From positions 3,769 through 67,768 of the forward strand of contig CAZOYV010000002.1 of the NCBI GenBank assembly GCA_964584075.1: a DNA stretch of 64,000 nt, in the 5' to 3' direction. A model generated the notes under the pieces. The model saw only the letters and a program-made list of their open reading frames with translations, searched no databases and was not told the DNA's origin. This document shows positions 26,983 to 61,252 of the stretch, in pieces. The position numbers and the translations under genes are program-made. The stretch comes from an uncultured Rickettsiales bacterium (lineage in GTDB: Bacteria; Myxococcota_A; UBA796; UBA9615; CAYRNR01). How positions within the stretch are numbered: the first letter of the stretch is position 1; every line of letters begins with the position of its first letter.

Positions 26983-27011
26983 TCGAACATAGGTCGATTT
27001 CGATCGACTAG

Positions 27012-30323
<3,312 letters not shown>

Positions 30324-30368
30324 CACCACCAGGAGCCTCCCGTTCCCGTGCCACCTTCGCGGGAACAC

Positions 30369-30420
30369 CCCCCCGGGGCCGGCCCCGATGGGCCCCGGGG
30401 GGAACCCCCATTTCCCCCCT
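30369..30420 (+). terminator. GC-rich hairpin followed by a T-containing tract, downstream of the GH9 gene (putative intrinsic terminator).
   Basis: The sequence ccCCCCGGGGCCggccccgatgGGCCCCGGGGgg forms a 10-12 bp stem, followed by aacccccatttcccc. Confidence 0.4.
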
Positions 30421-30525
30421 TCCCCTGCGGTGATTCGCTGCGCCGCATTGACTGCGCCTGGGCTCATTCGTAGCGCTGGATCGTGGACGCTCCCCGACAG
30501 GGGAGCCACAGGACGAGGTGCAGCG

Positions 30526-34465: not shown

Positions 34466-36322
34466 TCACCTCCCGGCGATCAGCTCGCGCACCGCGGCGG
34501 CGATCGCCCCGCGGTCGATGCCGGCGTACGCCAGCAGCTCGGCGGGCTGGCCGCTGCGCGGGATGCGCCGCACCGCCAGCGAGCGCAGCGGCACCGGCGC
34601 CTCGCTCAACGCCTCGCGCACCGCGTCGGCGATGCCGCCGGCGGCGGCGTGGTCCTCGACGGTGACGATCCGCCCGGTCTCGTCGGCGGCCCGCCGCAGC
34701 GTCTCGCGATCCACCGGGCGCACGCTGTACAGGTCCACCACCCGGGCCGAGATCCCGTCGCGGTCCAGCTCCTCGTGCGCGGCGAGGGCTTCGTGCAGCG
34801 TCACCCCCGCGGCCACGATCGTCGCCCGGTCGTCGGGCCCGCCGTGGAGCACCCGGGAGCCGCCGACGGCGAACTCGTCGTCGCGGTCGTAGATCACCGG
34901 CGTGGCGTTGCGGGACAACCGCAGGTAGCCGATCCCGGGCTCCCGCGCCAGCAGCTCCACCATCCGGTCCGCCGACACCGCGTCGCAGGGGTACAGCACG
35001 GTGGAGCGCAGCAGCGAGCGGAACAGCGCCAGGTCCTCGAGCCCCATCTGGGACGGGCCGTCCTGGCCGATGGAGACCCCGGCGTGGCTGCCGACGAACT
35101 CGATGGTCGCGTCGGAGTACTGGCACATCCGGATCTGGTCGTGGGCGCGGGTGAGGAACGCCGCGAACGTGGAGACGAACGGCAGCTTGCCCCGGCGGGA
35201 GAGCCCCAGCGCCGCGCCCACCATGTTCTGCTCGGCGACGTACATCTCGAAGAAGCGATCGGCGTGCCCGGCCGCGAAGTGCCTCGCGCGGGTGGAGTCG
35301 CTCACCTCGCCGTCGAGGGCGACCAGCGCGGGGAACGCCGGGAAGATGCGGTGGAGCGCCTTGCCGTAGGCGTCCCGGGTGGCCACCTGCTGGCCGCGCA
35401 CCCAGCCCGGCGCGGCGATCTCCGCCGGCGGGCGGGGCCGGGGCGCGGCGGCGTCGGGCGGGGAGATCTCGCCGCGCAGCGAGGGGTCCACCTCGCCGAT
35501 CTCGGCCAGCGCGCGCTGCAGCTCGTCGCCGTCGGGGGCGGCGCCGTGCCACCCCTCGCGGTCCTCGAGGAACGACACGCCCTTGCCCTTGATCGTGCGG
35601 GCGACGATCATCGCGGGGCGACCGTCGCCGCGCGCCACCTGCTCGTAGGCGTCCACCACGGCGGCCAGGTCGTGGCCGTCCTCGAGGGTCAGGGTGCGCC
35701 AGCCGAAGGCGCCCACGCGCCGCGCGTAGGCGTCGACGTCGTGGCCGTACATCGTCTCGCCGCGCTGGCCCAGGCGGTTGACGTCGAGGACGCCGACGAG
35801 GTTGTCCAGGCCGTGGTGGGCGGCCAGCTGGATCGCCTCCCACTGCGACCCCTCGGTCATCTCGCTGTCCCCCAGCAGCACGTAGGTGCGGTACGGCAGA
35901 TCGTCGATCTCCCGCGCAGCCAGCGCCATCCCCAGGCCCGCGGAGAGGCCCTGGCCCAGCGAGCCGGTGGCCACGTCGACGTAGGGGAAGCGCGGGGTGG
36001 GGTGCCCCTCCAGCGTGCTGTCGAACTCGCGGTAGCCCCGCAGCTCGCTCCGGGCCACCCGGCCCGCCGCGGCCCACAGCGCGTACAGCAGCGGCGTGGC
36101 GTGGCCCTTGGAGAACACCACGCGGTCGTTGCCCGGGTGGTCGGGCCGCTCCGGGTCGTACCGGAAGGTGCCGCCGAAGAACAGCCCGGTGCACAGCTCG
36201 ACGGCCGACAGCCCCGACGTGGGGTGGCCCGAGCCGGCCTCGCTCGTGGCCACCAGGATGTGGCGGCGGATCAGGCGGCACAGCTCGCCCAGGTGGTGGA
36301 GTCGTTCGCCGGTGGTGTCCAT
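34466..36322 (-). CDS. tkt: Transketolase.
   Basis: Real start MDTTGERLHHLGELCRLIRRHILVATSEAGSGHPTSGLSAVE is at 36322 with a GGCGAGGAGGG RBS. 618 aa, with the thiamine diphosphate motif GDSEMTEGSQWEA and transketolase pyrimidine-binding and C-terminal domains. The upstream 360 codons of ORF 34466..37411 were rejected. Confidence 0.9.
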   Translation of the reverse strand: MDTTGERLHHLGELCRLIRRHILVATSEAGSGHPTSGLSAVELCTGLFFGGTFRYDPERPDHPGNDRVVFSKGHATPLLYALWAAAGRVARSELRGYREFDSTLEGHPTPRFPYVDVATGSLGQGLSAGLGMALAAREIDDLPYRTYVLLGDSEMTEGSQWEAIQLAAHHGLDNLVGVLDVNRLGQRGETMYGHDVDAYARRVGAFGWRTLTLEDGHDLAAVVDAYEQVARGDGRPAMIVARTIKGKGVSFLEDREGWHGAAPDGDELQRALAEIGEVDPSLRGEISPPDAAAPRPRPPAEIAAPGWVRGQQVATRDAYGKALHRIFPAFPALVALDGEVSDSTRARHFAAGHADRFFEMYVAEQNMVGAALGLSRRGKLPFVSTFAAFLTRAHDQIRMCQYSDATIEFVGSHAGVSIGQDGPSQMGLEDLALFRSLLRSTVLYPCDAVSADRMVELLAREPGIGYLRLSRNATPVIYDRDDEFAVGGSRVLHGGPDDRATIVAAGVTLHEALAAHEELDRDGISARVVDLYSVRPVDRETLRRAADETGRIVTVEDHAAAGGIADAVREALSEAPVPLRSLAVRRIPRSGQPAELLAYAGIDRGAIAAAVRELIAGR

Positions 36323-36496
36323 GGGGCCCTCCTCGCCGGGTGTGCACGTTCGCCAGGACACCGTCCGAACCGCCGGCCGCCGGTACCATCGGGGAGGCTC
36401 CCAGGGCGGGGTGGTGCCGTTCCCGGAGAAGGGGACGCTCAAAAAAAGACGGCGCCCCCCTTGCGCCTCCGATCGCGGTGCCGAGTGTCGGTCGCC

Positions 36497-37369
36497 ATGG
36501 GAGCACCCTCGTCGGCCCGCCGCGCTCCGCCGGGAGCCGGGGCGACCGCCGCCCGTGCGCGGCGGCTCGCCTCGCTCGCCGTCCTGCCGTGGCTGCTCGC
36601 GGCGGCGCCCGCGGCCCGCTCGCAGGAGCCGGCGGAGCCGCCCGCCGCGGAGAAGGCGGGGAGCGGGGAGGAGCCCGTCGACGAGACCGCGCGGTTCTAC
36701 GTGCGGCGCTGCACCGGCTGCCACACCATCGGCGAGGGAGAGCTCGACGGTCCCGACCTGCAGGACTCCACCACCTGGCCGGTGGCCGACCTGGTGCCCG
36801 CCATCGAGCGGATGGAGAAGAACGTGGGGCCGATGAGCGACGCGCGCGTGACGGCGCTCGCGGAGCTGCTCCAGGACCCCCGGGTGCAGGAGCGCATCGG
36901 GACCGCCGGGGAGCGGCTGGCCGGAGAGCGGGCCGCCGACCTGCCGCCGGCGCGGGCCGAGGCCGGCCGGGCGCTGTTCTTCGGCGAGCGGGCGTTCGCC
37001 GAGGGCGGGCTGGCCTGCGCGGCGTGCCACTCGGCCGAGGGCCGCGGCGGGAACCTCGCCGCCCCGCTGCACGACGCGGCCTCGCGGCTGGGCCACTCCG
37101 CGCTGGTCTCCGCCGGCGCCCGCCCCGGCTACCCGCTGATGAAGGCCAGCTACCGGGACGAGCCGCTGCGCGAGCAGGAGGCGCGCCACGTGGCCGCGTA
37201 CCTGGAGTCGCTGCAGGGGCCGCCGCCCCCCGGCGCCGAGCCGGTGGCCGCCATCGGCTGGTCCGGGACCCTGCTGGCGCTCGCCGCGGTGGGCGCCGGC
37301 GGCCTGGCGGCCCTGCGCCGCGCCAGCGGGGTGAGGCGGCGCCTCGTCGAGCGCGCCAGGAGGAGCTGA
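36497..37369 (+). CDS. narC: Dihaem c-type cytochrome with an N-terminal signal peptide and a C-terminal TM anchor (NarC-like).
   Basis: Two CxxCH motifs (CTGCH, CAACH). Signal peptide RRLASLAVLPWLLAAAPAARS. C-terminal hydrophobic helix AAIGWSGTLLALAAVGAGGLAAL. Its stop sits 1 nt before the narG ATG. The arrangement resembles Thermus thermophilus narCGHJI. The RBS is weak, so the start is uncertain. Confidence 0.7.
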   Translation: MGAPSSARRAPPGAGATAARARRLASLAVLPWLLAAAPAARSQEPAEPPAAEKAGSGEEPVDETARFYVRRCTGCHTIGEGELDGPDLQDSTTWPVADLVPAIERMEKNVGPMSDARVTALAELLQDPRVQERIGTAGERLAGERAADLPPARAEAGRALFFGERAFAEGGLACAACHSAEGRGGNLAAPLHDAASRLGHSALVSAGARPGYPLMKASYRDEPLREQEARHVAAYLESLQGPPPPGAEPVAAIGWSGTLLALAAVGAGGLAALRRASGVRRRLVERARRS

Positions 37370-37370
37370 G

Positions 37371-41006
<3,636 letters not shown>

Positions 41007-41026
41007 CCGCCGCGAGCCGGAGGACG

Positions 41027-42519
<1,493 letters not shown>

Positions 42520-42523
<4 letters not shown>

Positions 42524-43059
42524 GCCGGCCCGACCCCAGGACGGCCGTGGCGGCGCTCGCCGGGCTGCTGCGCTACCCGGACGGCTCGCTCGAGGGCCGC
42601 GTCCGCGACGCGCGCGCGAGCGTCGGGACGGTCGACGCCGGGCTCGCGGGCGCCCTCGACCGCTTCGTGGACGAGACGAGGCGGCTGGGCCCGGCGAGGC
42701 ACGAGGAGCTGTACACCCGCACCTTCGACCTCTCGCCGTCGTGCGTGCCGTACCTGTCGGTGTACCTGTTCGGCGCCGGCAGCCTGGAGCGAGGCCGGCT
42801 GATGTCGGGCCTCGCCGGGGCCTACCGCCGCACGGGCCACGACCCGGGCGGCGAGCTGCCCGACCACGTCGCGGTGGTGCTGGCGTGGGCGCCCCGGGCC
42901 CCCCGCGAGGAGTGGCGGGAGCTGGTGGACCATGCGCTGCGGGGTCCGCTGCGGCAGATGGGCAGGACCCTCGAGGAGGCAGGCAACCCCTACCGCCACC
43001 TGCTGGCCGCGGCGGCGACGGCGGTGGAGCTCGCCCGCGGGGGGGGCGGCGATGGCTGA
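42520..43059 (+). CDS. narJ: Nitrate reductase assembly chaperone NarJ.
   Basis: Start overlaps the narH stop as ATGA, with a GCGGAGG RBS. 179 aa with a NarJ/TorD-like fold motif (ELYTRTFDLSPSCVPYLSVYLFG). Confidence 0.8.
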
Positions 43060-44371
43060 GACCTTCCTGTTCGTGGGCATGCCCTACCTGGCCGTGGTGT
43101 TCCTGATCCTCGGCTCGTACCTGCGCTACCGGTCCGACCGCTTCGGGTTCTCGGCGCTGTCGTCGCAGATCCTCGAGAGCCGCCTGCTGCCGTGGGGTTC
43201 GATCCCGTGGCACGCCGGGATCCTGATCGTGCTGGTGGGGCACCTGCTGCCGCTGCTGGCCCCGGGCCCCTGGCAGGCGCTGGTGTCCGAGCACGCGGTC
43301 CTGGTGGTGGTGGAGGCCGTGGGGCTGGGTGCGGCCCTGGCCGCGGGCATCGGGCTGACCCTGCTGCTGGTGCGCCGCGTGCTCGGCGCCCCGCTGCAGC
43401 GGGTGACCTCGGTGCTGGACCTGGTCGTGGTGGGCCTGCTGCTGGCCCAGGTCGCGCTGGGCATCGGCGTGGCCCACGCCCACCGCTGGGGGGCCTCGTG
43501 GTCGGCGGGGACCACCACGCCGTACCTGTGGAGCTTGCTGACGCTGCAGCCGCGGCCGGCGCTGGTCACCGGCCTGCCGGCGCTGGTCCAGGTCCACCTC
43601 GTCGTCGCCTGGCTGATCTTCCTGCTGGTCCCGTTCTCGCGGCTGGTCCACCTGTTCTCGATCCCCGTCGGCTACCTGGTGCGCCCGTACCTGAAGGTGA
43701 TCTGGGCCAGCCGGCGTCGGCTCGACCTCGCGGTCGAGGAGCACCCTCCCGACGCCGGCCGGCGCCTGCTGGTCCAGGGCCTGGCGGGGGCGGGCGCCGC
43801 GGTCGCCCTGCTGGGGGTGGGCGTCGCCGAGAAGCTGCTGGGGTTCTTCTCGGGACCGGAGATGTCGCTCCGGGAGGAGGCCGATCTGCTGGGCCGCAAG
43901 ATCGAGCGGCTGGAGCAGACCGCGCAGCAGCGGGAGCTCCAGCTCGAGCGGCTGCACTCGGAGCGGATCCTCGTGGCCCGCCTGGGCGACCTGTCCCCGA
44001 CGGAGGGGCACTACTTCATCGACTACGAGATGCGGCCGGCCCTGGCGTTCCGCGGCCCGGACGGCCTGCCGCTGCTGATCTCGGCGGAGTGCACCCACCT
44101 GGGCTGCACCGTGTCCCGCGAGGTGGACTCCCGCGGACGGCTGTTCTGTCCGTGCCACGTCTCCTACTTCGATCTGGAGACCGGCGAGCCGGAGCCGGGG
44201 TCGCCCGCCGACGCGCCGCTGCCCCGCATCGGCTGGGAGCTCGTCGACGCCGGCGGCGAGACGGTGGCGTCGGCGCGCCCCGGCGGGCCGGTGACCGGCG
44301 ACGTGGACCCGCAGGCCCTGGAGGGCCACGACGTGTACATCGCGCGGCGCTTCGCCGGGGGGCCGGTCTGA
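43052..44371 (+). CDS. narI: Fusion protein: nitrate reductase gamma subunit NarI (dihaem b, 5 TM) fused at its C-terminus to a Rieske [2Fe-2S] protein.
   Basis: Residues 1-225 are NarI-like (MAETFLFVGMPYLAVVFLILGSYLRYR..., with His ligands such as WHAGILIVLVGHLL and VQVHLVVAWLIFLLVPFSRLVHLFSIPVGYLVRPY). The frame continues without a stop into an RR-containing TM linker (RRLLVQGLAGAGAAVALLGVGVA) and a Rieske domain with box I CTHLGC and box II CPCHVS. The fusion is a single uninterrupted 439-aa ORF. Confidence 0.8.
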   Translation: MAETFLFVGMPYLAVVFLILGSYLRYRSDRFGFSALSSQILESRLLPWGSIPWHAGILIVLVGHLLPLLAPGPWQALVSEHAVLVVVEAVGLGAALAAGIGLTLLLVRRVLGAPLQRVTSVLDLVVVGLLLAQVALGIGVAHAHRWGASWSAGTTTPYLWSLLTLQPRPALVTGLPALVQVHLVVAWLIFLLVPFSRLVHLFSIPVGYLVRPYLKVIWASRRRLDLAVEEHPPDAGRRLLVQGLAGAGAAVALLGVGVAEKLLGFFSGPEMSLREEADLLGRKIERLEQTAQQRELQLERLHSERILVARLGDLSPTEGHYFIDYEMRPALAFRGPDGLPLLISAECTHLGCTVSREVDSRGRLFCPCHVSYFDLETGEPEPGSPADAPLPRIGWELVDAGGETVASARPGGPVTGDVDPQALEGHDVYIARRFAGGPV

Positions 44372-45459
44372 TGGGTCGGCTCGCGGGCTGGCTGGGGGAG
44401 CGCTTGCCGCTGCAGCGGCTGAGCTGGCAGACGCTCGTCGAGGACAAGGAGGTCCCGCGGCACCGCTTCAGCTGGGCCTACTACCTCGGCGGGCTGGCCC
44501 TGTTCGCGTTCGCGATCCAGCTCGTGACCGGGCTGATGCTGCTGTTCTACTACGAGCCGACGGTCTCCGACGCCCACGCGTCCATCGACCACATCTCGCA
44601 CCACGTCCCCGGCGGCTTCCTGGTGCGCAACCTGCACACCTGGACCGCGTCGGCGATGGTGCTGTTCGTGCTGCTGCACCTGCTGACCACGTTCGCGATG
44701 AAGGCCTTCGACCGGCCGCGCGAGCTGACCTGGCTGACCGGGATCGTGCTGCTGCTGGTGACCTTCGGCTTCGGCTTCACCGGCTACCTGCTGCCGTGGC
44801 ACCAGGTGGCGGTCAACGCGACCAAGGTCGTGCTGCAGTCCATCGAGGAGGTCGGGCGCTACCTGCCCGGCTCGCTGGCGGAGCTCCCGGCGCAGCTGGC
44901 GGAGCTGATCCAGGGCGGCCCGTCGGTGGGCCAGTCCACCCTGTCGCGGTTCTACGCGCTCCACGTCGTGGTGCTGCCGCTGGTCGTGCTCGCGACGCTG
45001 GCCGTGCACCTGCTGGTGGTGCAGCTCCACGGGATGTCGCCCGGCGTGGACCGGCCCACCGGCCGCGCCGACCGGTTCTTCCCGTTCTTCGTGCTCGAGG
45101 ACCTCTCGCTGTGGGGCGCGGTGTTCCTGGTGCTGTTCGCGCTGGCGCTGCTGGTGCCGTTCGAGGCGCTGTACTCCTACCCCCTGTTCGCGGCCTACGA
45201 GCCGATGGGCGCGACGCCGGACGGGATCAAGCCCGAGTGGTACTTCTACTGGATCTACTACCCGCTGGAGCTGCTGCCGTTCTGGCTCGTGACCCTGGCG
45301 GCCGGCGCCGCCCTGGCGGTGATCGTGGCGTCCCCGTGGATCTTCCGCCGCACCGGCCGGCGCACGGCGGCCATCCTCGCCGCCGGCGCCGGGGCGTACC
45401 TGCTCGTGATGACCGCGCTCGGCCAGCGGATCCACGAGCTGTTCCGGGGGGGTGGCTGA
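44371..45459 (+). CDS. Cytochrome b of the bc/b6f type (b6 plus subunit-IV-like fused, 362 aa).
   Basis: Start overlaps the fusion-gene stop as TGATG. Haem-ligand His region ...SIDHISHHVPGGFLVRNLHTWTASAMVLFVLLHLL. Motifs TGYLLPWHQ and PEWYFYWIYYPLE are characteristic of cyt b6/subunit IV. Confidence 0.85.
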   Translation: MGRLAGWLGERLPLQRLSWQTLVEDKEVPRHRFSWAYYLGGLALFAFAIQLVTGLMLLFYYEPTVSDAHASIDHISHHVPGGFLVRNLHTWTASAMVLFVLLHLLTTFAMKAFDRPRELTWLTGIVLLLVTFGFGFTGYLLPWHQVAVNATKVVLQSIEEVGRYLPGSLAELPAQLAELIQGGPSVGQSTLSRFYALHVVVLPLVVLATLAVHLLVVQLHGMSPGVDRPTGRADRFFPFFVLEDLSLWGAVFLVLFALALLVPFEALYSYPLFAAYEPMGATPDGIKPEWYFYWIYYPLELLPFWLVTLAAGAALAVIVASPWIFRRTGRRTAAILAAGAGAYLLVMTALGQRIHELFRGGG

Positions 45460-46082
45460 TGCGCGTGCTCGCCACCGCGATCGTGCTGCTGCTCGCCACG
45501 CCGGCCGGGGCCCACCCGGAGTTCGAGGCGTGGATCGAGCAGCGCTCCGGCGCGTGGGTCGACTGCGCGATGTGCCACACCCACCCGGAGGGGCCGGAGG
45601 GGGTCAAGCCGGGCCAGATCCGAAGCCTCGGTCCGGACGAGCTCGACGCTCTCAACCGCGCGCGGAGCGCATTCGAGCCGGGCGCGGGGGTGGACAGTCC
45701 GATCCTCAACGACTTCGGCGACCGGATGCTCGACGAGCTGGGCAAGACCGAGATCCTGCGGCTGCGCCACGAGGACCCGGGCCAGGTGGCCGAGGCGCTC
45801 GGGGCCGAGGGCGACCTCGACGGCGACGGGATCGCCGACGCCCGGGAGTACCTCGACGGCACCCACCCCCTCGACGCGCACAGCGGCGAGCCGCTGGCGC
45901 TGGCCCGGCAGCGGCTGCGCGACCGCACCTTCGACCTGCTGATGATCGTGCTGGCCACCCTCGCCGGGGTGTGGGGCCTCAACCGGCTGATCTCGTCCCG
46001 GCGGGCCGGCCCCGGCGGAGGGGCCGCGACGCCGCGCGACGCCGCGCAGACGTCGTCGCGCGAGGGCAGGAGCGCGAGGTGA
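45459..46082 (+). CDS. Membrane-anchored monohaem c-type cytochrome.
   Basis: Start overlaps the cyt b stop as TGATG. Signal peptide MRVLATAIVLLLATPAGA. Single CAMCH haem-binding motif. Asp/Gly-rich Ca-binding-like motif DLDGDGIADAREYLDGTHPLD. C-terminal TM helix LLMIVLATLAGVWGL. Confidence 0.6.
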   Translation: MRVLATAIVLLLATPAGAHPEFEAWIEQRSGAWVDCAMCHTHPEGPEGVKPGQIRSLGPDELDALNRARSAFEPGAGVDSPILNDFGDRMLDELGKTEILRLRHEDPGQVAEALGAEGDLDGDGIADAREYLDGTHPLDAHSGEPLALARQRLRDRTFDLLMIVLATLAGVWGLNRLISSRRAGPGGGAATPRDAAQTSSREGRSAR

Positions 46083-47389
46083 GCGGCTCCTTCCGCGGTA
46101 CGCCCCGTTCGGGCCTGATCGGCGCCACGCTGGGGTTCTTCGTCGGCTTCGCCGCGGTGGCGCTGTTCGGCCCCACGGCGCGGCGCTTCCAGGAGGTGAT
46201 GGAGCTGACGCCGCTGATGGTCGGCTTCCTGGTGGCGATGCCGGCGCTCTCGGGCTCGATCCTGCGCATCCCGTTCTCGGCCTGGGTCGACACCACGGGG
46301 GGCCGCAAGCCGTTCCTGGTGCTGCTGGCGCTGTCCGTGGTGGGGATGGCCGGGGTGCTCGCCGTGGTGTGGCTGCTGTACCCCGACCGCCTGACCGCCG
46401 CGACCTACCCCCTGCTGCTGCTGCTGGGGGTGCTCTGCGGCTGCGGCATCGCCACCTTCTCGGTGGGCATCAGCCAGGTCTCCTACTGGTACCCGCAGGG
46501 CTCGCAGGGCCGGGTGCTGGCGATCTTCGCGGGCTTCGGCAACGTCGCCCCGGGGATCTTCTCGTTCCTGATCCCGGTGGCCCTGGGCAGCATCGGCCTG
46601 GCCGGCTCGTACCTGGCCTGGCTGGCCTTCCTCGCCGCCGGCACCGCCGTGTACGTCCTCACCGGGCGCAACGCCTGGTACTTCCAGCTCCGCCGCCGCG
46701 GCCTGGATGACGCCGCGGCGCGCGAGCGGGCCCGGGAGCAGGGCCAGGAGCTGTTCCCGGCCGGCAGCCTGCGGGAGAGCCTCGCCCGCTCCGCCCGCGT
46801 GTGGCGCACGTGGGCGCTGGTGGCGGTCTACTTCACGACGTTCGGCGGGTTCATCGCGATGACCGCCTGGCTGCCGACCTACTGGACCGAACTGCACGGC
46901 ACGCCGGAGCTCACCGCCGGCCTGCTCACCGGCGTGTACTCGATCCTGGCGTCGCTGATCCGGATCCCCGGCGGCTTCCTGGCCGACGCCCGGGGCGGCG
47001 CGATCACCGGCGCGGTGGCGCTCGTGGTGCTCCTCGCCGGCGCGCTGGTGGCGAGCCTCTCCGCCGGACTGGGGCCGGCCGTCGCCGGGATCGTGCTGAT
47101 GGCCATCGGCATGGGCGTGACCAACGCCGCGGTGTTCAAGCTCGTCCCCCAGGTCGTCCCCGACGCCGTCGGCGGAGCCGTGGGCTGGGTCGGCGGCCTC
47201 GGCGCCTTCGGCGGCTTCGCGATCCCCCCGGTCCTGGGCTGGGCGGTCCGCGCCTGGGGAGACGCCGGCTACGCCCGCGGCTACCTGGTGTTCGTGGCGC
47301 TGGCGGCGCTGTCGCTGGGGATGGTGTGGCTGGCGCGGCGCGGCCTGCGGACCCAGGCCTCCCCGGGAGGACGCGCGGACGAGGGATGA
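46079..47389 (+). CDS. narK: MFS nitrate/nitrite transporter.
   Basis: GTG start overlaps the upstream stop as GTGA, with an AGGAG RBS. 12-TM MFS with a NarK-like Gly-rich signature (GFGNVAPGIFSFL, GGLGAFGGFAIPPVLG). Confidence 0.8.
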   Translation: MSGSFRGTPRSGLIGATLGFFVGFAAVALFGPTARRFQEVMELTPLMVGFLVAMPALSGSILRIPFSAWVDTTGGRKPFLVLLALSVVGMAGVLAVVWLLYPDRLTAATYPLLLLLGVLCGCGIATFSVGISQVSYWYPQGSQGRVLAIFAGFGNVAPGIFSFLIPVALGSIGLAGSYLAWLAFLAAGTAVYVLTGRNAWYFQLRRRGLDDAAARERAREQGQELFPAGSLRESLARSARVWRTWALVAVYFTTFGGFIAMTAWLPTYWTELHGTPELTAGLLTGVYSILASLIRIPGGFLADARGGAITGAVALVVLLAGALVASLSAGLGPAVAGIVLMAIGMGVTNAAVFKLVPQVVPDAVGGAVGWVGGLGAFGGFAIPPVLGWAVRAWGDAGYARGYLVFVALAALSLGMVWLARRGLRTQASPGGRADEG

Positions 47390-47504
47390 GGAGAGTCCCG
47401 GACCCTGGAGCGCGAGTCTGGAGAGGCGCCGGGCCCGGGGATCTGGGCGCCGGAGCCCGGCGGCGAGCGCGGCGGCGGGGAGGGGGACCTGCCGCCGGAG
47501 GGGA

Positions 47505-48170
47505 TCAGGCCTCCGTCTCCGTGCGGCCCCGGATCATCGTCAGCGCGTGGCGCCAGCGGCCCTCGCGGAGCCCGGGGATGCACCACAGCATGCACAGCGG
47601 CTCGATGGCGCGGGCCGACTCCTTGCCCCCCATGTCCTCGATGTCCCAGCCGAACTGCACCAGGACCTCCCGCACCTGGGACTTGGCCGCGTCGTCGTCG
47701 CCGCAGATGAACATCGTGGGCTGCCAGCCGCCGAGGTCCGGGTCGACGAAGTAGGCGTTGCCGACGCAGGAGAACGCCTTGACGAAGCGCGCCTCCGGCG
47801 CCGCCTCCTGCAGCCGCTCCATCAGCGAGTGGTTGATGTCGGTGAAGTACCGCAGCACGCCGTTGTCGGCCGGCTCCTCGGCGATGGGGTTGGTGGTGTC
47901 GATCACGGTCTTGCCGGCGAGGGCCTCGGGGCCACACAGCGCCAGCGCCTGCTCCGCCGCCCGCCCCTGGACCGCCAGCACCACCAGGTCGCCCCAGGCC
48001 GCCGCCTCGGCGAAGGTGCCCGTGCGCGCCCTGGCTCCCGCGGCCGCGTCCCAGTCGTCCAGCTTTCGGGGGTCCCGCGACGATCGCATCACCTCGTACC
48101 CGCGGTCGAGGAACCCCGCCGCGAGGGCCTCGCTGACCACGCCCGAGCCGATGATCCCGATCTTGCTCAT
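47505..48170 (-). CDS. NADP oxidoreductase of the F420-dependent family (Npd/P5CR-like dinucleotide-binding protein).
   Basis: MSKIGIIGSGVVSEALAAGF is a Rossmann GxGxxG motif. 221 aa. GGAGGAGA RBS. Confidence 0.7.
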   Translation of the reverse strand: MSKIGIIGSGVVSEALAAGFLDRGYEVMRSSRDPRKLDDWDAAAGARARTGTFAEAAAWGDLVVLAVQGRAAEQALALCGPEALAGKTVIDTTNPIAEEPADNGVLRYFTDINHSLMERLQEAAPEARFVKAFSCVGNAYFVDPDLGGWQPTMFICGDDDAAKSQVREVLVQFGWDIEDMGGKESARAIEPLCMLWCIPGLREGRWRHALTMIRGRTETEA

Positions 48171-48236: not shown

Positions 48237-51200
48237 CTAGTCGCTACGAATTCCCTGGCAAGATCCGGAACCGGCCGAGCTGGGCGCGGCCCACGCCCGA
48301 GGGGGGGGGCGGCCTCGGGGGGCAGGGAGCCGCTTCTTGAAGTGCAGCTCCAGCCCGCCGTTGCCCGCGTCGCCGTACCGTACCTCCAGGTACAGCTCCC
48401 GGGCCAGCTGGAGCTCGATCTCGCCCTCGAACTGGTTCTCGTCCTCCTCGACGCCCACGCGGTAGCGGGTGATCAGGAAGATGCGCTCGGTGATCGACTT
48501 GCCGATCTCGATGCCGTAGCTGCCTGGCCCGGCGGGGTTGGTCTCGATGTTGACCAGGTCCACCAGATCGTGGCCCACCACCCGCCCCAGGGCCTGGTTG
48601 GCCTGGGTGGTCAGCATCCCGGCCACCGCGGTGAGCGCGTCCTCGCCCCCGGTGGACTCCCCGGGGCGCAGCTCGTCCACCGGCGAGCCGAACAGCAGCA
48701 CGCTGACGATGTCGGCGTCCGCCCCGATCTCCTCGCTGCCGAAGCTCAGCTCCGGCTCGGATGTGCGCCCCGCGACGCGCACCCGGATCTCGCCGTGGCG
48801 GCTGTGGTGGACCGCGGTGACGTCCAGCCGCGGATCGGGCGGTCGCGCCCCCGTGAATCGAACCCGGCCCTCCTCCACCTCGAACTGCTTGCCCAGCACC
48901 GAGATGTTGCCCCGCACGGCGCGCACCTCTCCCTCGCCGTGGAGCTGGCCCGAGCGGTACGTCAGCGCCATCTCGCCCTCGAGCTGGATATCGGGGCGGA
49001 TCCGGCCCAGCCCGGGCGCCGCGGCCACGTCCAGGTGGATCCAGCTGTCCCGCTGCAGCTCCAGGTCGACCTGGACGTCGAGGTGGTCCAGCAGCGCCGG
49101 GCGCTCCCCGCCCTCCTCCCGCTCCCCGCCCTCGCGCTCGTCCTCGCGGTGGACGGCCACGTGCGGATCGCGCTCCAGCGGCCAGGCCTCGCGGCGCAGC
49201 TCGTCACCCATGTCCACGTCGAGCTGCTGCACGACCACGTCGCCGCGGACCTCCACGTCGGGGTAGTCCCCCTTCGCGGTGAGATCCAGGTTGGCGCGAG
49301 CCCGGAGCTGGGGCGTGTACGAGAGCCAGAAGTCCTCCGCATCGACGGACAGGTCCACCATCCCCAGCCCCTCGCGGAGGACCACCGAGCCCTCGGCCTC
49401 GACGTGTCCCCCGCGCTCCGGGGGGGCGGGCAACAGCGGGGGGGGAGCGCCCTCCTCCTCCGCCTGGCGCCGCTGCAGCCGCGTCAGGTGGTCCCCGGCC
49501 GGCTGGCTGTCCGCCTCGCAGCGTCGCAGCACCAGCTTGCGCAGGCTGGAGCGCACCTGCACCTGGATCCGGTCGTAGCACACCCCCAGCGCGGCGTGGC
49601 ACAGCGCGCCGTCCTCGACGGAGGCCCGCAGGTCCGGGTCGGGCTCCAGCAGGCTGCCGCGCACCGAGCCGTCGAGCTGCAGCGTCCCGTCGGAGTGGGA
49701 CGTCCCGTCGATGAACGCGGTCACGAGCCCCAGCGGCAGGTCGTCGCCGGTGAGCGTCCCGTCCAGGCCGTCCTGCCCGAAGCGCTGCTCCCGGCTGCGC
49801 CCGCCGGACAGCGACAGGTCGATCGGCGAGGACGCCTCCACGCTGAGGGCGCCGCCGTCGCGGGTCCGCAGCTCCAGCGCCAGCTCCAGCTGCCGCTGCT
49901 CCACGCTGCCCTCCAGCGAGAAGTCGGTCAGCGTCACCTCGCCGAGGCGGGCGCCCCGCAGCGTCAGGTCGGTGGCCACGACCGGGTCGGAGAGCAGCTC
50001 CGCGGCGCTCAGCTCCCCCACGAGCTTGCCGTGCAGCGCGTCCAGGGCGTCGCCGTAGAGGCGCACCGTCTCCACCGGCAGCCCGGTGAGGCCCAGCTGG
50101 AGCTGGACATCCTCCAGGTATGCCCGCGGCTCGCGATCCGCCCCGCCGAGGGTGTCGTCCAGCAGCCGCCCGAGCTCGAACGACCCCTCGATCGTCCCCT
50201 CCGCGAGCTGGCTCTCCAGGTCGCGGACCCGGCCCTCGACGGTGAAGCGCTCGTCCTCGAGGCGACCGTCCACGTCGGCGGCCAGCGCCGGCAGCTCTCC
50301 CATCGCCACGTCGCGCACCCGCACCTCGGCCCGGGCGTCGGGCCGGGCGCCGGTACCCGACACCGACAGCGTCAGGCCGACGTCCAAGGCCGGCAACCCC
50401 TCGGCGCCCGGCAACACCGCGGCGAGGTCCCCCGCGGCCTGCACGGGCAGCTCGGCGAACAGCTGCAGCATCCCGTCGCGCTCCCACCGGATGCCGTCCT
50501 GCGCGATGCGGTAGGGCACCACCCCCTGCACCTCGAGGGGCTCCAGCTCCGCACCGCCCACGGTGGCCACCACGCTGGTGGAGTCGCCCGCGACCACCAG
50601 CCCCACGTCCACCGCGAGGGGCCCCACCTCGCCGTAGCGGACCCCCTCGCCGTCGAGCTGCACGTTGCCCTCCGGCGCCACCGTGCGGCCCCGCAGCGAG
50701 GCGTCGAGGTCCACCACCCCCCGCAGCGCCCTGGCCCCGGCCGGGAGCACCGGCTGGAGCACCCCGAGCTGCAGCTCGCGGGCGGTGACCGACAGGTCCG
50801 ACGAGCCCGAGAGCGCAAGCGTGCCCTCCACCGCCAGGGAGCCCCGCTCGCCCGAGATCGCCAGGTCCGCGAAGGTCAGCTCGCCGCCGGCCCCGATCTC
50901 CAGCGTGAACGGCTGCGCGCTCTGCCACGCCGCGTCGTGGGTCTCCAGCTGCAGCTCCTCGGCGTGGATCCGCAGCGGCCGCTCCGACCAGTCCACCGTC
51001 GCCAGCGCCCGGGCCGAGACCTCCGGCTCCACCGACAGCTGCAGCATCCCGTCGAGGCCCTGGCCGACGAACTCGAGGTCGAACGTGGCGCGGCCGGCGG
51101 AGGTCCCGCCCAGCGCCAGCCGGTGGGCGTCGCCCTGCACCCCGCCGTGCAGGCCGCCACCGCCGTAGCGGCCGTCGAAGGTCGCGGCGAGGCGGGCGGC

Positions 51201-52676
51201 CTGCACCGACCCGACGCCCACCCCGGCGCCGCCCACGTCGCCGCTGGCCTCGGCGAAGAACCCCGAGGCCCCGCCCCAGCCCCCGTCGAGGGTCAGCGTG
51301 CCGTCCGCCCTCCCGGTGAGCCCCGCGACGCCGGCGAGGTCCCCGATCCAGGCCAGGTCGACCCCCTCGAGCGTCCCGTCCGCGGCGAGGCGCCGGTCCC
51401 GCACCGCGACGCGGCCCTGCAGGTCGGCGTGGCCCATCGCCGAGGCCACCTCGAGGCGGTCGACGCGGGCGCGCAGCTCGGGCTCCAGCGCGCCCTCGAG
51501 GCGCAGCCGCTCCACCTCGTACTCGCGGAAGGACGAGGCCTGCAGCGCCACCGTCGCTGCGCCGGCCAGCTCCCCGGGCACGAGGCCCGCCCCGTCCACG
51601 GTGACCCGCCCGCTCAGGGAGCTGGCCAGGTCCGCGACGGTGAGGAACGACCCCAGGTCGACCCCGTCCAGGTCGACGGCGGCCCGATACGGCAGCGGGC
51701 GGGTGTCCAGCTCCAGGGTCGCGTCGAGCCCGGCCTCGCCGGTGGGCAGCCGCAGCGTGCCGGCGGTGTGCACGGCCTCGAGCGGGCCGGTGACCCGCGC
51801 GTCGAGGCCCACCACGCCGGTCAGCGGCAGCTCGGCGACGGGCCGCAGCGAGTCCAGGTCGAGGCGGACCACCGCCAGCTCCAGGTCCAGCTCGGGCGCG
51901 GCGGTGGGGCCCACGTCGCCGCTCGCCCGTAGCTCGTCCTTGCCGCGACGCAGCCGTACCGACGCGTCCCACAGCGCGCCGTCGTCCAGGACCGCGTCCG
52001 CGGCGAGCTCGACGGGGCCCAGCCCCGGCTCGGTGGCCAGCGCGGCGAGCCGGTGGACCGTGGGGTGGATGCGGCGCCCGCGCACCTCGAGGGCCCCCGC
52101 GAGGGCCAGGTGCTCCAGCCGGAAGGGCGCCTCGGCGCCCTCGGTCGCCAGCGACACGGCCCCGTCGAGGCCCACGTCCTCGACGACGATCGCCACCGGC
52201 AGCTCGGGGGGTTCGGCGTCCGGGTCCCGCGGCGGCAGGATCGAGAACAGATCCAGCCCCTCGGGCCCGACGGCCAGGTCGGCGTCGAGGCCGCGCACGC
52301 GCACCCCGGTGACGTGCACCACGCGGCCGGGCAGCGCCAGCGGGCTCCACGCCACCGCCAGCTCCTCGGCGGCCAGCAGCTGCGCGCCGGCGGGGTCCAG
52401 CACCCGCACCCCCACCAGCGTGAACGACGACAGCAGGTGCCCCCGCGCGTCCTCGACCTCGACGGTGCCCTCCAGGGCGCCGTTGGCCGCGGTCAGGCCC
52501 CGCCGCAGGGCGAAGTGCAGCCCGGCCTCGCTGTCGATCCACAGCAGCGCGGCCCCCAGCGCCAGCACCCCCAGCCCCGCCAGTGCGCCCAGCGCCAGCC
52601 CGGCGCGCCACAGCCACCGCGTCCACCGGCGGCGCCGGCCTCCCTCCGGAGGAGGGGTCGTCGGCGTGCGGGCCAT
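48237..52676 (-). CDS. tamB: Translocation and assembly module subunit TamB (DUF490 C-terminus).
   Basis: 1479 aa with an N-terminal signal-anchor (WLWRAGLALGALAGLGVLALGAALLW), a long beta-rich body, and a C-terminal DUF490 (GKSITERIFLITRYRVGVEEDENQFEGEIELQLARELYLEVRYG). It lies directly downstream of tamA. Confidence 0.75.
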   Translation of the reverse strand: MARTPTTPPPEGGRRRRWTRWLWRAGLALGALAGLGVLALGAALLWIDSEAGLHFALRRGLTAANGALEGTVEVEDARGHLLSSFTLVGVRVLDPAGAQLLAAEELAVAWSPLALPGRVVHVTGVRVRGLDADLAVGPEGLDLFSILPPRDPDAEPPELPVAIVVEDVGLDGAVSLATEGAEAPFRLEHLALAGALEVRGRRIHPTVHRLAALATEPGLGPVELAADAVLDDGALWDASVRLRRGKDELRASGDVGPTAAPELDLELAVVRLDLDSLRPVAELPLTGVVGLDARVTGPLEAVHTAGTLRLPTGEAGLDATLELDTRPLPYRAAVDLDGVDLGSFLTVADLASSLSGRVTVDGAGLVPGELAGAATVALQASSFREYEVERLRLEGALEPELRARVDRLEVASAMGHADLQGRVAVRDRRLAADGTLEGVDLAWIGDLAGVAGLTGRADGTLTLDGGWGGASGFFAEASGDVGGAGVGVGSVQAARLAATFDGRYGGGGLHGGVQGDAHRLALGGTSAGRATFDLEFVGQGLDGMLQLSVEPEVSARALATVDWSERPLRIHAEELQLETHDAAWQSAQPFTLEIGAGGELTFADLAISGERGSLAVEGTLALSGSSDLSVTARELQLGVLQPVLPAGARALRGVVDLDASLRGRTVAPEGNVQLDGEGVRYGEVGPLAVDVGLVVAGDSTSVVATVGGAELEPLEVQGVVPYRIAQDGIRWERDGMLQLFAELPVQAAGDLAAVLPGAEGLPALDVGLTLSVSGTGARPDARAEVRVRDVAMGELPALAADVDGRLEDERFTVEGRVRDLESQLAEGTIEGSFELGRLLDDTLGGADREPRAYLEDVQLQLGLTGLPVETVRLYGDALDALHGKLVGELSAAELLSDPVVATDLTLRGARLGEVTLTDFSLEGSVEQRQLELALELRTRDGGALSVEASSPIDLSLSGGRSREQRFGQDGLDGTLTGDDLPLGLVTAFIDGTSHSDGTLQLDGSVRGSLLEPDPDLRASVEDGALCHAALGVCYDRIQVQVRSSLRKLVLRRCEADSQPAGDHLTRLQRRQAEEEGAPPPLLPAPPERGGHVEAEGSVVLREGLGMVDLSVDAEDFWLSYTPQLRARANLDLTAKGDYPDVEVRGDVVVQQLDVDMGDELRREAWPLERDPHVAVHREDEREGGEREEGGERPALLDHLDVQVDLELQRDSWIHLDVAAAPGLGRIRPDIQLEGEMALTYRSGQLHGEGEVRAVRGNISVLGKQFEVEEGRVRFTGARPPDPRLDVTAVHHSRHGEIRVRVAGRTSEPELSFGSEEIGADADIVSVLLFGSPVDELRPGESTGGEDALTAVAGMLTTQANQALGRVVGHDLVDLVNIETNPAGPGSYGIEIGKSITERIFLITRYRVGVEEDENQFEGEIELQLARELYLEVRYGDAGNGGLELHFKKRLPAPRGRPPPRAWAAPSSAGSGSCQGIRSD

Positions 52677-52677
52677 C

Positions 52678-54681
52678 TCAGAACGCCTCGCCGAGGCCGA
52701 AGTGGACCAGGAACTTCGGGGCGCCCTCGAACATCTCGGCGCTGTTCAGCCGGCCGGCGGCGTCGAGGCGGATGATGCCCACCGGCGAGACCACCCGCAG
52801 GCCACCGCCGACGCTCCACATCAGCCCCTCCCAGGAGACCTGCTCGGTGGTGGCCCACACGCGGCCCACGTCCAGGAACACCGCCCCGCCGAACCGCCAC
52901 TGCTGGACCTGGACCGGGTAGAACCGCACCTCGGGTCCGCCTGCCAGCATCACGTGGCCGCCGAGGGGGAACGGGTCGCACTCGCGGCGCCCGCAGCTGT
53001 CGCTCCCGCAGGGATCGCCGCTCTCGCAGGTGGTGGGGTAGTAGCGGGGGCCCAGCAGGTCACGGGTCCAGCCCCGGACGCTGGCGCTGCCTCCGGTCTT
53101 GAAGCGCTGGCTCAGCGGCGCCGAGTCGGTGTCGGCCAGGGGGAGGATCAGCCCGCCCTGCACGCGCAGCGCGAGGATCAGCACGTCGCGGACCGGGTCC
53201 ACGTAGCCGCGCAGGTCGGCGGAGAACTTGAGGTACTCGAAGCTCCCCCCGAGGCCGGCCTCGGAGACGCTGCCGCGCGCGAACACGCCCCGGCGGGTGA
53301 ACAGCGGGTCCTCGCGGGCGTCCCACGTGATCTGCTGCGAGAGGTAGCTGAGCGTGTACAGCCCGTCGGTGTCCACCTCCGGGACCCGGTGTCGCAGCCG
53401 CTCGTGGAACAGCTCGGGGTCCCGCTGGTACAGCCAGTAGAACTTGAAGTTGTAGCTGACGTTCAGTGACAGCCGGCGGTGCAGCCGGAAGGTCGTGCCC
53501 GCCGTGACCTGGGGGGACAGGTAGCTGTACCCGCTCTCCACGTCGGCGAGGAACGTGACCCGCTGCCGCAGCTGCAGCCAGGTCAGCGGCGTGGGCTCGA
53601 TCACGGCCAGCTCCCCCTGGCCGATGGGACCGTGGCTGCGCGGCGAGAACACGTCGGGGACCACCGCCCAGCCGAACTCGTTGTAGCTGTGCAGCTGCAC
53701 CAGCAGCCCCCCCACGTTCTGGTGGTTGAACAGGAACGAGGCGTGGGCGTCGTCGCGGCCGCGCTCCAGCCCCACGCCGCCGCCGAGCTCCACCGTGATC
53801 GGCGGCGCCTCGCGCAGGGTCACGAGCACGTCGATCACGGCCGGCGTGCCGTCCTCGAGCCGCGGGGTGACGGTCACCAGCGAGAACACCCCCAGGCCGA
53901 ACAGGTCCGCCTGCAGCTCGCGCAGGTCCGACCGGGCGTACTCGTCGCCCGGCCCGAAGTCGATCTCCCGCTCGACGCGCGGGCGCGGGACGTTCTCGAG
54001 CCCCTCGATCTCGATGCGGCCGTAGTGGCACAGCGGGCCGGAGTCGATGGTGTACGTCAGGTCCACGGCCCGCTCGTCGGGGTACACGTCGGCCTGCCGC
54101 TCGACCTCGGCGTGGGCGTAGCCGCCGTCGAGGAGCACGCCGCGCAGCGCCTCCTGATCGTCCCGCTGCCGGGGCAGCTCGAACGGATCGCCCCGGGACA
54201 GCCGGGGCGTGTCCTCGAGCCGCTCCCGGAGGTCCTCGTCGAGCCCGTCGGTCCCGAGGATCCGCACCTCGCGGACCTCCGAGCGAGGCCCCTCCTCGAC
54301 GGTGAAGGTCACCACCGCCCAGCGGCGCGTGTCCCCGACCTCCTTGCCCCTGTACTCGATGCCCAGGCCCACGGCGCGCGCGTCGAAGAACCCCATCGCC
54401 TCGTAGAACCGCACCAGCCGCGTCTGGTCCTCCAGCACCAGCTCGCGATCCAGCGGGACCCAGAACCGGCGCAGCTGCAGTGGGATCGCCCACCACGGGG
54501 TCCGGGTGGTGGCCAGGGCGTCGCGCACCCTGGGGCCGCGCAGCTCCTCGTTGCCCTCGACCGCGACCCGCCGCACGTGGGTCCGCGTCGGGTCGGCCAG
54601 TGGCTGGCGGTGGGCGCACCCGGCGCCTGCCCCCAGCAGGGCCACCAGAGCGAGCAGCAGGGCGGGCCAGCGTGTCGGCAT
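52678..54681 (-). CDS. tamA: Omp85-family outer-membrane protein TamA (POTRA plus 16-strand barrel).
   Basis: Signal or lipoprotein-like N-terminus (LLLALVALLGAGAGC), POTRA-like repeats, and a C-terminal bacterial surface-antigen barrel ending ...HFGLGEAF. Confidence 0.75.
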   Translation of the reverse strand: MPTRWPALLLALVALLGAGAGCAHRQPLADPTRTHVRRVAVEGNEELRGPRVRDALATTRTPWWAIPLQLRRFWVPLDRELVLEDQTRLVRFYEAMGFFDARAVGLGIEYRGKEVGDTRRWAVVTFTVEEGPRSEVREVRILGTDGLDEDLRERLEDTPRLSRGDPFELPRQRDDQEALRGVLLDGGYAHAEVERQADVYPDERAVDLTYTIDSGPLCHYGRIEIEGLENVPRPRVEREIDFGPGDEYARSDLRELQADLFGLGVFSLVTVTPRLEDGTPAVIDVLVTLREAPPITVELGGGVGLERGRDDAHASFLFNHQNVGGLLVQLHSYNEFGWAVVPDVFSPRSHGPIGQGELAVIEPTPLTWLQLRQRVTFLADVESGYSYLSPQVTAGTTFRLHRRLSLNVSYNFKFYWLYQRDPELFHERLRHRVPEVDTDGLYTLSYLSQQITWDAREDPLFTRRGVFARGSVSEAGLGGSFEYLKFSADLRGYVDPVRDVLILALRVQGGLILPLADTDSAPLSQRFKTGGSASVRGWTRDLLGPRYYPTTCESGDPCGSDSCGRRECDPFPLGGHVMLAGGPEVRFYPVQVQQWRFGGAVFLDVGRVWATTEQVSWEGLMWSVGGGLRVVSPVGIIRLDAAGRLNSAEMFEGAPKFLVHFGLGEAF

Positions 54682-54819
54682 CGTCGGGTACCGTCCGGAT
54701 ACGAACCCGGCCGCGGCTGTCCAGCCCGCTGGCCGCTCCCGGAGGCGGGCAGGGGCTCGTGGGGTTGCCAGCCGCCGCCGCGGTGTCTAGGCCCGGTGGG
54801 CCCGCTGGAGGGTTGCGCG

Positions 54820-55875: not shown

Positions 55876-55915
55876 GCGGGGAGCCGGACCTCGCGCCCCG
55901 CGACCACCCTCGCGG

Positions 55916-61218: not shown

Positions 61219-61252
61219 GCCGTGACCTCCCGTCTCCTCCCGATCCCTCCAG

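Follow-up and report, generated by a model that had tools for sequence, protein, structure and literature searches.

A nitrate reductase operon with a NarI–Rieske fusion, a cytochrome b and three c-type haems: a candidate link between cytoplasmic-type Nar and a bc module

Known nitrate reductases and the operon in the window

Nitrate respiration by NarGHI is taught as a simple redox loop, which gives 2 H+/2e- and bypasses the bc complex. In the NarGHI of Escherichia coli (1Q16), NarI oxidises quinol directly, and 2 charges are moved per 2e-. We analysed a stretch of 64,000 nucleotides from an uncultured Rickettsiales bacterium (contig CAZOYV010000002.1), and this whole stretch is called the window. 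It contains an operon of eight genes, narC-narG-narH-narJ-narI::Rieske-cytB-cytC-narK (36497..47389), in which the gamma subunit NarI is fused to a Rieske protein, and genes for a cytochrome b and a monohaem cytochrome c follow. The operon may represent a widespread class of Nar, in which a Q-cycle bc module would be wired to the reductase covalently (NarI::Rieske) and through three c-type haems, and the charge yield would be doubled. A cytochrome c of no known fold and a six-helix class of Sec/Tat proteins would belong to the same system. The proposal in its entirety is tentative, and we place it a little below an even chance.

The E. coli enzyme and the system encoded here share a cytoplasmic NarG with FS0, NarH, NarJ and a five-helix dihaem NarI with the same four histidines. 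In the present operon, however, NarI is extended by a twin-arginine (Tat) motif, a sixth transmembrane (TM) helix and the Rieske domain, the position of Lys86 is hydrophobic, and NarC, cytochrome b and cytochrome c are added. In classical nNar, NarI is a separate subunit of ~225 aa, whereas the fusion has 439 aa.

In the narCGHJI-K operon of Thermus thermophilus, the gene for a membrane-anchored dihaem cytochrome c is also located 5' of narG, and the gene order narC-G-H-J-I-K is the same. Thermus NarC is a fourth Nar subunit that maturation requires. Two-hybrid assays showed that it binds NarI, and it is implicated in bridging electrons between Nar and periplasmic enzymes (PMC7694296). In contrast to the fusion, Thermus NarI is unfused (229 aa), and Arg occupies its Lys86 column. 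Genes for a Rieske protein, cytochrome b or monohaem cytochrome c are absent from the Thermus nar operon, and an operon for the Nrc NADH dehydrogenase is nearby (PMC7694296).

The initial annotation stated that Rieske/cytochrome b modules beside nitrate reductase are known only for the haloarchaeal periplasmic Nar (pNar). The haloarchaeal pNar is not known to have a NarI, and a periplasmic b-type cytochrome passes electrons to NarH. In the haloarchaeal pNar (NarB/NarC) and the Methanoperedens-type Nar, a Rieske protein and cytochrome b are encoded in the nar cluster, and supply by a Q cycle has been proposed (PMC3509893). NarG is exported in the haloarchaeal pNar and nitrate is reduced outside, whereas NarG is cytoplasmic here and NarI is present and fused. 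According to Baymann et al., Nar in the characterised bacterial denitrification chains is cytoplasmic and bypasses Rieske/cytb, unlike haloarchaeal pNar (PMC3509893).

The word 'only' has to be relaxed, given two bacterial examples. Streptomyces coelicolor Nar1 is a cytoplasmic NarGHI that needs a Rieske/cytochrome b complex (bcc-aa3), and electron transfer from the QcrC dihaem to NarI haem bD was proposed (PMC7931247). In that case, unlike here, the genes are neither linked nor fused, the proposed association is non-covalent and unproven, and bcc is a housekeeping aerobic complex. In the cultured planctomycete Thermogutta terrifontis, a cytoplasmic-type Nar adjoins bc1 genes (THTE_1506-1512), and a role of complex III was suggested (PMC5673643). 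The gene order is different from that of the window, narI is separate, NarC is stated to be absent, and no fusion is described (PMC5673643). In Campylobacter, Nap and Tor are fed by Qcr (PMC6195509). Full-text literature searches (subscription-only papers not covered) gave no description of the eight-gene operon or of a NarI-Rieske fusion, in line with the initial annotation, which did not recognise the fusion as described. The finding is rated as a variant that combines known kinds, nNar and a Rieske/cytochrome b complex, and not as a categorically new system.

The genes of the operon are as follows.

36497..37369, plus strand: narC-like gene; dihaem c-type cytochrome of 290 aa with signal peptide, CTGCH, CAACH and C-terminal TM anchor
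37371..41006, plus strand: narG; catalytic subunit of 1211 aa, cytoplasmic (nNar) type
41027..42523, plus strand: narH; iron-sulfur subunit of 498 aa; translation starts MDIRAHTSVVFHLDKCIGCHTC
42520..43059, plus strand: narJ; chaperone of 179 aa (Pfam Nitrate_red_del and TIGR00684); overlaps the narH stop and the narI::Rieske start
43052..44371, plus strand: narI::Rieske; 439 aa, six TM helices
44371..45459, plus strand: cytB; cytochrome b of 362 aa, b6-like N-terminal half joined to a subunit-IV-like half
45459..46082, plus strand: cytC; membrane-anchored monohaem cytochrome c of 207 aa with signal peptide, CAMCH and C-terminal TM helix
46079..47389, plus strand: narK-like gene; nitrate/nitrite transporter of the major facilitator superfamily (MFS); the GTG start overlaps the cytC stop, and the start position is tentative

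The narC-like gene had been overlooked in the initial annotation. It ends 2 nt before the narG ATG. The genes narG, narH, narJ and narI::Rieske overlap or are at most 20 nt apart, and TGATG stop/start overlaps are located at 44369-44373 (narI::Rieske/cytB) and 45457-45461 (cytB/cytC). NarG scored 1444 bits against TIGR01580 (cutoff 1084), and NarH is 56-72% identical to the NarH frames of related loci. The N-terminus of NarG is MAWIQDLFDPQQRTW...HGVNCTGGCSW (MAWIQ start), which bears the FS0 His/Cys motif, and just 12 open codons are present 5' of the start. Thus, NarG has no Tat signal peptide and is of the cytoplasmic type. The narK-like protein matches Pfam MFS_1, and its top NCBIfam match is TIGR00886 (NarK), under the cutoff.

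The NarI::Rieske fusion and its distribution

The region 43052..44371 is a single open reading frame (ORF) of 439 codons, as first described, and it translates without a stop. Hidden Markov model searches located both domains in the product: Nitrate_red_gam (PF02665) at residues 4-218 (E 1.2e-59) and Rieske (PF00355) at residues 308-386 (E 9.8e-7), both past the cutoffs. The protein also scored 127.5 bits against TIGR00351 narI (cutoff 105.6). The features of the fusion are as follows.

43061..43705, plus strand: NarI domain, residues 4-218; five TM helices; haem ligands His54, His64, His182 and His200
43757..43849, plus strand: internal twin-arginine motif and Tat-type helix TM6, residues ~235-266; G-R237-R238-L-L-V-Q
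43868..43957, plus strand: long periplasmic helix, residues 273-302, between TM6 and the Rieske head; modelled by AlphaFold2 (AF2) with a predicted local distance difference test score (pLDDT) of 82-88
43964..44344, plus strand: Rieske [2Fe-2S] domain, residues 305-431; ligands C347, H349, C366 and H369; disulfide C352/C368

The NarI half aligns to residues 6-220 of E. coli NarI, and H54/H64/H182/H200 correspond to E. coli H56/H66/H187/H205. The haem-ligating His pairs are present, and the four residues are invariant in all 66 sequences aligned. The NarI half of the AF2 model (pLDDT 83) was superposed on E. coli NarI (1Q16 chain C) with a Foldseek TM-score of 0.82. The superposition fixes the topology of this half, with the N-terminus outside and the C-terminus inside. 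The model is that of a monomer, and it was not used for haem-to-cluster distances.

The linker had been noted as an RR-containing TM segment. The RR is present, and more precisely it belongs to a canonical internal Tat motif directly before TM6, which is separated from NarI by a cytoplasmic linker of 17 residues. The consensus of the family is E-[SA]-R-R-x-F-[LI]-[KR], and RR is found in 65-66 of the 66 sequences. TM6 is rich in Gly and Ala, and residues 235-266 are predicted as a helix by AF2. It has the lowest hydropathy of the six TM helices (mean Kyte-Doolittle value 1.16, against 1.41-2.24 for the others), and a net positive charge follows it. The Rieske boxes CTHLGC (C347-C352) and CPCHVS (C366-P-C-H369), including the bc-type disulfide cysteines, are invariant (66/66), so that the Rieske half has its full set of CxH...CxxH ligands. 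The nearest solved Rieske sequences are those of Thermus thermophilus (1NYK, 3FOU) and Corynebacterium QcrA. Thermus and Corynebacterium use menaquinol and have low-potential Rieske centres. No chain in the PDB spans both halves of the fusion.

According to these features, the predicted topology of the fusion is coherent: the cytoplasmic C-terminus of NarI is followed by the Tat motif and TM6, and the Rieske domain is periplasmic. The Rieske domain is predicted to be anchored by a Tat-type signal-anchor helix, which is internal rather than N-terminal. In the Sec/Tat proteins described by Tooke et al. (2017), including actinobacterial QcrA, an internal RR likewise precedes a weakly hydrophobic last helix, and a positive charge and an exported cofactor domain follow (PMC5449189). 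The low hydropathy of TM6 and the positive charge after it fit the Sec-to-Tat hand-off rule demonstrated there (PMC5449189). The families of Tooke et al. have 3-5 helices and were surveyed from an N-in start, whereas the present protein has six helices, an N-out orientation and a haem-binding NarI as the Sec part. The term NarI is absent from that paper (PMC5449189). The fusion is a candidate family to be added to the few proteins that need both Sec and Tat.

A frameshift or a misassembly could in principle have joined separate narI and Rieske genes. The Logan assembly of SRR7048225 (L001), however, is 100% identical to the window over 42624..45062, a range that includes the junction. A search of 5.8 billion proteins gave 311 matches, and the best 120 clusters are all ~440 aa with both Pfam domains. 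Loci were also collected by a scan of one genome per GTDB species, which was queried with peptide patterns from narI::Rieske and under-samples distant members. The scan gave 75 loci, all but one labelled as metagenome-assembled genomes (MAGs). NarI and Rieske are in one ORF at 69 of the 71 loci that hold both halves, and these come from many projects and assemblers. In one of the two exceptions (L023), the halves are in the same frame. In the other (L069, an Acidobacteriota MAG), a one-base frame change is present in the linker. The operon at L069 is the closest relative of the operon in the window, and its frame change is the one point in favour of an artefact.

The frame change of L069 (8672..8707) is located in a 2-Mb contig, and the NarI frame stays open for 1.7 kb without a stop. 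This pattern is expected of an indel error in a long contig, and the frame change is probably such an error and not a true split. The linker holds a conserved Tat motif, which also argues against an accidental junction. An artefact is ruled out by the recurrence data, and the probability left to it is negligible. The fusion is real, ancient and recurrent.

The loci are labelled Planctomycetota, Melainabacteria/Obscuribacterales, Myxococcota, Sumerlaeota, Omnitrophota, Verrucomicrobiota, Calditrichota, Acidobacteriota, Bacteroidota, Hydrogenedentes, Eisenbacteria and a few Proteobacteria or Clostridia bins. At least 11 phyla carry fusion loci, with the proviso that taxonomic labels of MAGs can be wrong. 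The neighbourhood of the fusion gene was counted at the loci with enough flank, and the results are as follows.

narC directly 5' of narG: 48/48 loci
narG upstream: 49/49 loci
narH upstream: 59/59 loci
narJ upstream of narI::Rieske: 67/67 loci
cytB downstream of narI::Rieske: 61/61 loci
cytC after cytB: effectively 57/57 loci

The fusion recurs in relatives and is linked to cytB at every locus with enough flank, a point on which the initial annotation had asked for comparison with related genomes. In about half of the loci, a narK gene is found after cytC, in the same orientation. No nir, nor, nos or oxidase genes are present in the conserved gene string, and only narK recurs. The invariant gene string argues strongly for a physical assembly of Nar with the bc module in these bacteria. 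In a neighbour-joining tree of cytochrome b, the sequences group largely by phylum, which points to a long stay in these lineages and not to a recent spread.

Both halves of the fusion also exist alone. Close unfused relatives of the NarI half are found in ordinary narGHJI-narK operons (P0123, with 58% identity, and P0129). Stand-alone Rieske-cytB-cytC modules without nar genes, which belong to the same clade, were found at L070 (7938..10314), L071 (8055..10386) and L072; these loci are labelled Cyanobacteria or Obscuribacterales, and Oligoflexia. Their Rieske proteins also match the 273-302 helix of the fusion. At L071, a gene for a DOMON-domain protein is located immediately upstream of Rieske-cytB-cytC, and at L070 a cbb3-type cytochrome c is encoded nearby on the opposite strand. 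The fused string persists and diversifies largely by phylum though both halves exist alone, and this points to selection for the link.

Divergent NarI::Rieske fusions with Tat motifs of their own were observed as well. P0135 (L080) comes after narJ and before the gene of a 33%-identical cytochrome b, P0146 (L083) is preceded by narG-narH-narJ, and P0178 (L082) is outside a nar context and adjoins a cytochrome c gene and a UbiA-family gene. Other partners are found at either end of NarI. In P0141 and P0175, an N-terminal monohaem cytochrome c and a TM region are fused to NarI, and P0153 has a similar extension without CxxCH. P0186 combines NarI with a C-terminal multihaem cytochrome c, and P0183 combines NarI with a NarK-like MFS transporter. 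NarI seems to have been joined to periplasmic redox modules repeatedly.

Cytochrome b and the c-type cytochromes

The b6/subunit-IV-type cytochrome b that had been assigned downstream of the fusion, with a TGATG overlap, was found as described (44371..45459). The product matches Cytochrome_B (PF00033, E 1.5e-44) and Cytochrom_B_C (PF00032), and the best PDB matches of the N-terminal half are cytochrome b6 (E 7e-50). The haem histidines H89, H103, H198 and H213 are invariant (66/66), and the Qo motif PEWY (P288-E-W-Y291) is present in 65-66 of the 66 sequences. The His pair of helix D has the b6-type spacing, with 14 residues between. The b6-like N-terminal half, this spacing and PEWY are shared with cytochrome b6f and the Firmicute-type bc complexes. 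In contrast to b6f, the b6 and subunit IV parts form one polypeptide, the Cys of haem ci is replaced by Tyr (...AYYLGG, against ...FYCLGG in b6; Y37 and Y38 are invariant), and the c-type subunit is unrelated to cytochrome f or c1.

After the second ligand of helix D, in the segment 213-225 (~45007..45045), Q218, H220, G221, M222 and G225 are invariant, and S223 is nearly so. This segment corresponds to R-K-Q-G-I-S-G of b6, and we take it to be the region where bc1 has the Qi-site His. The residues of 213-225, together with the missing haem-ci Cys, suggest a bc1-like Qi site on a b6-like scaffold. As for the quinone, PEWY occurs also in menaquinone-using lineages. An assignment of the quinone type from the Qo motif was dropped, as PEWY is not decisive.

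The monohaem cytochrome c with CAMCH and a C-terminal anchor was likewise found at 45459..46082, behind another TGATG overlap. Members of its family are annotated merely as 'hypothetical protein', and pipelines label the fusion 'nitrate reductase subunit gamma', so that metabolic reconstructions miss the system. No Pfam or NCBIfam model matched CytC above its cutoff. When the CytC profile was compared with solved structures, the sole match was an EF-hand loop, D119-x-D-x-D-G-x-I-x-x-x-E130, of which the acidic positions are invariant. The AF2 model is all-alpha and has no fold match in the PDB. CytC is unrelated in sequence to cytochrome c1, cytochrome f and QcrC, and it is analogous to them in topology only. 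The protein points to a cytochrome c fold without a solved relative.

The predicted signal-peptidase site of CytC is A-x-A|(Y/H)-P-E-(F/Y)-Q. The mature N-terminus is Tyr in most sequences and His here, and it is located ~17 residues before CxxCH. Such an N-terminus resembles that of cytochrome f, whose alpha-amino group ligates the haem. CytC was considered as a relative of cytochrome f because of the similar N-terminus and CxxCH spacing, but homology was rejected in view of the all-alpha model without a PDB match.

The narC-like product (36497..37369) has two stretches of similarity to each of Cytochrome_CBB3 and Cytochrom_C in Pfam. In PLSDB, it matched only 13 Thermus thermophilus megaplasmids, in each of which the cytochrome c gene is located directly 5' of narG in narCGHJI-K. 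The identity with Thermus NarC is 41% over the second haem domain (E 2e-14). The best NCBIfam match is the actinobacterial QcrC, a weak resemblance under the cutoff. Because its sole plasmid relatives are in this position of the Thermus operon, the predicted product of 36497..37369 is a NarC homologue. The binding of Thermus NarC to NarI gives a precedent for contact between a c-type haem and a NarI haem, and the NarC-like protein is most likely the interface to NarI.

Electron path, alternatives and surroundings

The cofactor ligands of the whole system are intact, namely the four His of NarI, the Rieske ligands and disulfide, the four His and PEWY of cytochrome b, one CxxCH in CytC and two in NarC. 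The reading that we favour, at about even odds, is a hard-wired Nar-bc supercomplex of these proteins, in which quinol oxidation by a Q cycle would feed NarGH through the c-type haems and NarI, with ~4 charges per 2e-. In such a complex, NarI helices 1-5 would be inserted by Sec/YidC, and the folded Rieske domain would then be exported by Tat, as in the actinobacterial polytopic Rieske proteins. The covalent tether with its 17-residue linker would force NarI beside the Rieske anchor, and hence NarGHI against the cytochrome b dimer.

Cytochrome b would oxidise menaquinol at its Qo site. One of the two electrons would pass from Rieske to CytC, NarC, the distal haem and the proximal haem of NarI, the NarH clusters and the Mo of NarG, and so to cytoplasmic nitrate. 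The other electron would return by way of both b haems to the Qi site. The Q cycle would contribute 2 charges per 2e- and the transfer through NarI from the P side to the N side another 2, giving ~4 against 2 for the classical NarGHI loop. The span from menaquinol to nitrate is ~505 mV, and coupling to a Q cycle was argued to be feasible for Streptomyces Nar1 (PMC7931247).

The quinol site of NarI bears on whether electrons must enter through the bc module. The column of E. coli Lys86 (QD site) is hydrophobic in all 66 fused proteins, and it is Arg in 34 of 78 unfused NarIs and in Thermus, though the loop alignment is uncertain. Several points weigh against the supercomplex, and some of them concern this site. 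The nearest unfused NarIs, which belong to ordinary narGHJI operons, also have no basic residue at the Lys86 column, and Arg or Lys is found two positions before it in 19 of the 66 fused proteins. The quinol-site pocket of NarI is not obviously destroyed.

The other points concern the partners and the path. In the AF2 monomer of the fusion, the mutual placement of the two domains is unreliable (predicted template modelling score, pTM, 0.54). CytC has no known fold and no recognisable sixth ligand of the haem: over 64 sequences, the His of CxxCH is the only conserved one among all Met and His residues. The electron path is inferred. In some lineages, PEWY goes along with high-potential quinones (PMC4122944), and a yield of 4 charges per 2e- would be marginal if ubiquinone were the donor. 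For Thermus NarC, the direction assumed is the opposite one, out of Nar (PMC7694296).

In an alternative, the two parts would work side by side. NarI would oxidise quinol itself, and the bc module, CytC and NarC would serve other periplasmic acceptors, such as nitrite, NO and N2O reductases or oxidases. The fusion would then serve only co-assembly, stoichiometry and co-regulation, and the arrangement could allow switching between nitrate and downstream acceptors. The haem-bD pocket columns (E. coli 65, 69 and 94) are Gly/Ala and are alike in the fused and unfused sets, as this alternative would have it, and the stand-alone Rieske-cytB-cytC modules show that the bc module works with non-Nar acceptors. 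Thermus NarC was also proposed to pass Nar electrons to Nir/Nor as a complex III surrogate (PMC7694296). None of the genes for such acceptors (nir, nor, nos) belongs to the conserved string, however, and a covalent link kept in ~70 loci and at least 11 phyla exceeds the needs of co-regulation. If NarI and NarC already provide an exit to the periplasm, a complete bc module is redundant unless it is placed in series. We regard the side-by-side arrangement as unlikely, though it deserves consideration beside the supercomplex.

The direction of the electron flow was considered as well. The system could be a nitrite oxidoreductase (NXR) like that of Nitrobacter, in which electrons from nitrite oxidised in the cytoplasm exit through NarI and the c-type haems, and the bc module would run backwards at the expense of the proton-motive force to lift part of them into the quinone pool. 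A reversed bc complex is part of the bioenergetics of nitrite oxidisers. A narK gene would suit either direction, and the Nitrobacter NXR clusters resemble the narC-containing cluster of Thermus (PMC7694296). The conserved string contains no oxidase genes, and NarG passes the narG equivalog model, though that model would not exclude NxrA. To our knowledge, none of the hosts (Obscuribacterales, Verrucomicrobiota, Planctomycetota, Chitinophagaceae, Acidobacteriota) is a nitrite oxidiser. Most host lineages use menaquinone, and the climb from nitrite to menaquinone (~0.5 V) is beyond what ~4 charges per 2e- can pay. Thus, nitrite oxidation is very improbable.

If the Nar-bc supercomplex is true, bacterial Nar does not always work around the bc complex, contrary to the textbook rule. 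Many uncultured bacteria of sludge, lakes, soils and groundwater would then gain about twice the energy per nitrate. This would bear on their competitiveness, on the growth-yield assumptions in nitrogen-cycle models, and on the evolutionary link of Nar, NXR and bc complexes. The dependence of Streptomyces Nar1 on bcc, which is still unexplained, would gain genetic support from such a hard-wired case.

The window has a G+C content of ~74% and contains many spurious long ORFs. A minus-strand ORF (34466..37423) seemingly overlaps narC and narG; it is real just in its C-terminal ~640 aa (transketolase family), with a likely start near 36379. A scan of 36300..47700 for promoters and terminators gave no promoter-like site, and the terminator-like matches were at chance level. 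No obvious FNR-type palindrome was found in the 117-bp divergent intergenic region 36380..36496. This region contains an A7 tract, which is unusual in a window of 74% G+C, and a G+C-rich hairpin (36451..36467), and no regulator site was identified in it.

The flanks of the operon are unrelated to it and comprise the opposite-strand transketolase-family gene and genes for an F420-type oxidoreductase, TamB and Omp85. Other genes of the window (22849..32382 and 48237..61383) are also unrelated to nitrate respiration, and their products include a BcsC-like TPR outer-membrane protein, a NosD-like beta-helix protein, TamB and an Omp85/BamA-like protein. The same regions encode a GH9 cellulase with seven MopE-type metal-binding repeats and CBM3, as well as a possible trehalose synthase-maltokinase fusion, which has an alpha-amylase catalytic domain and a maltokinase N-terminal cap domain. 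These genes indicate a diderm, polysaccharide-degrading organism.

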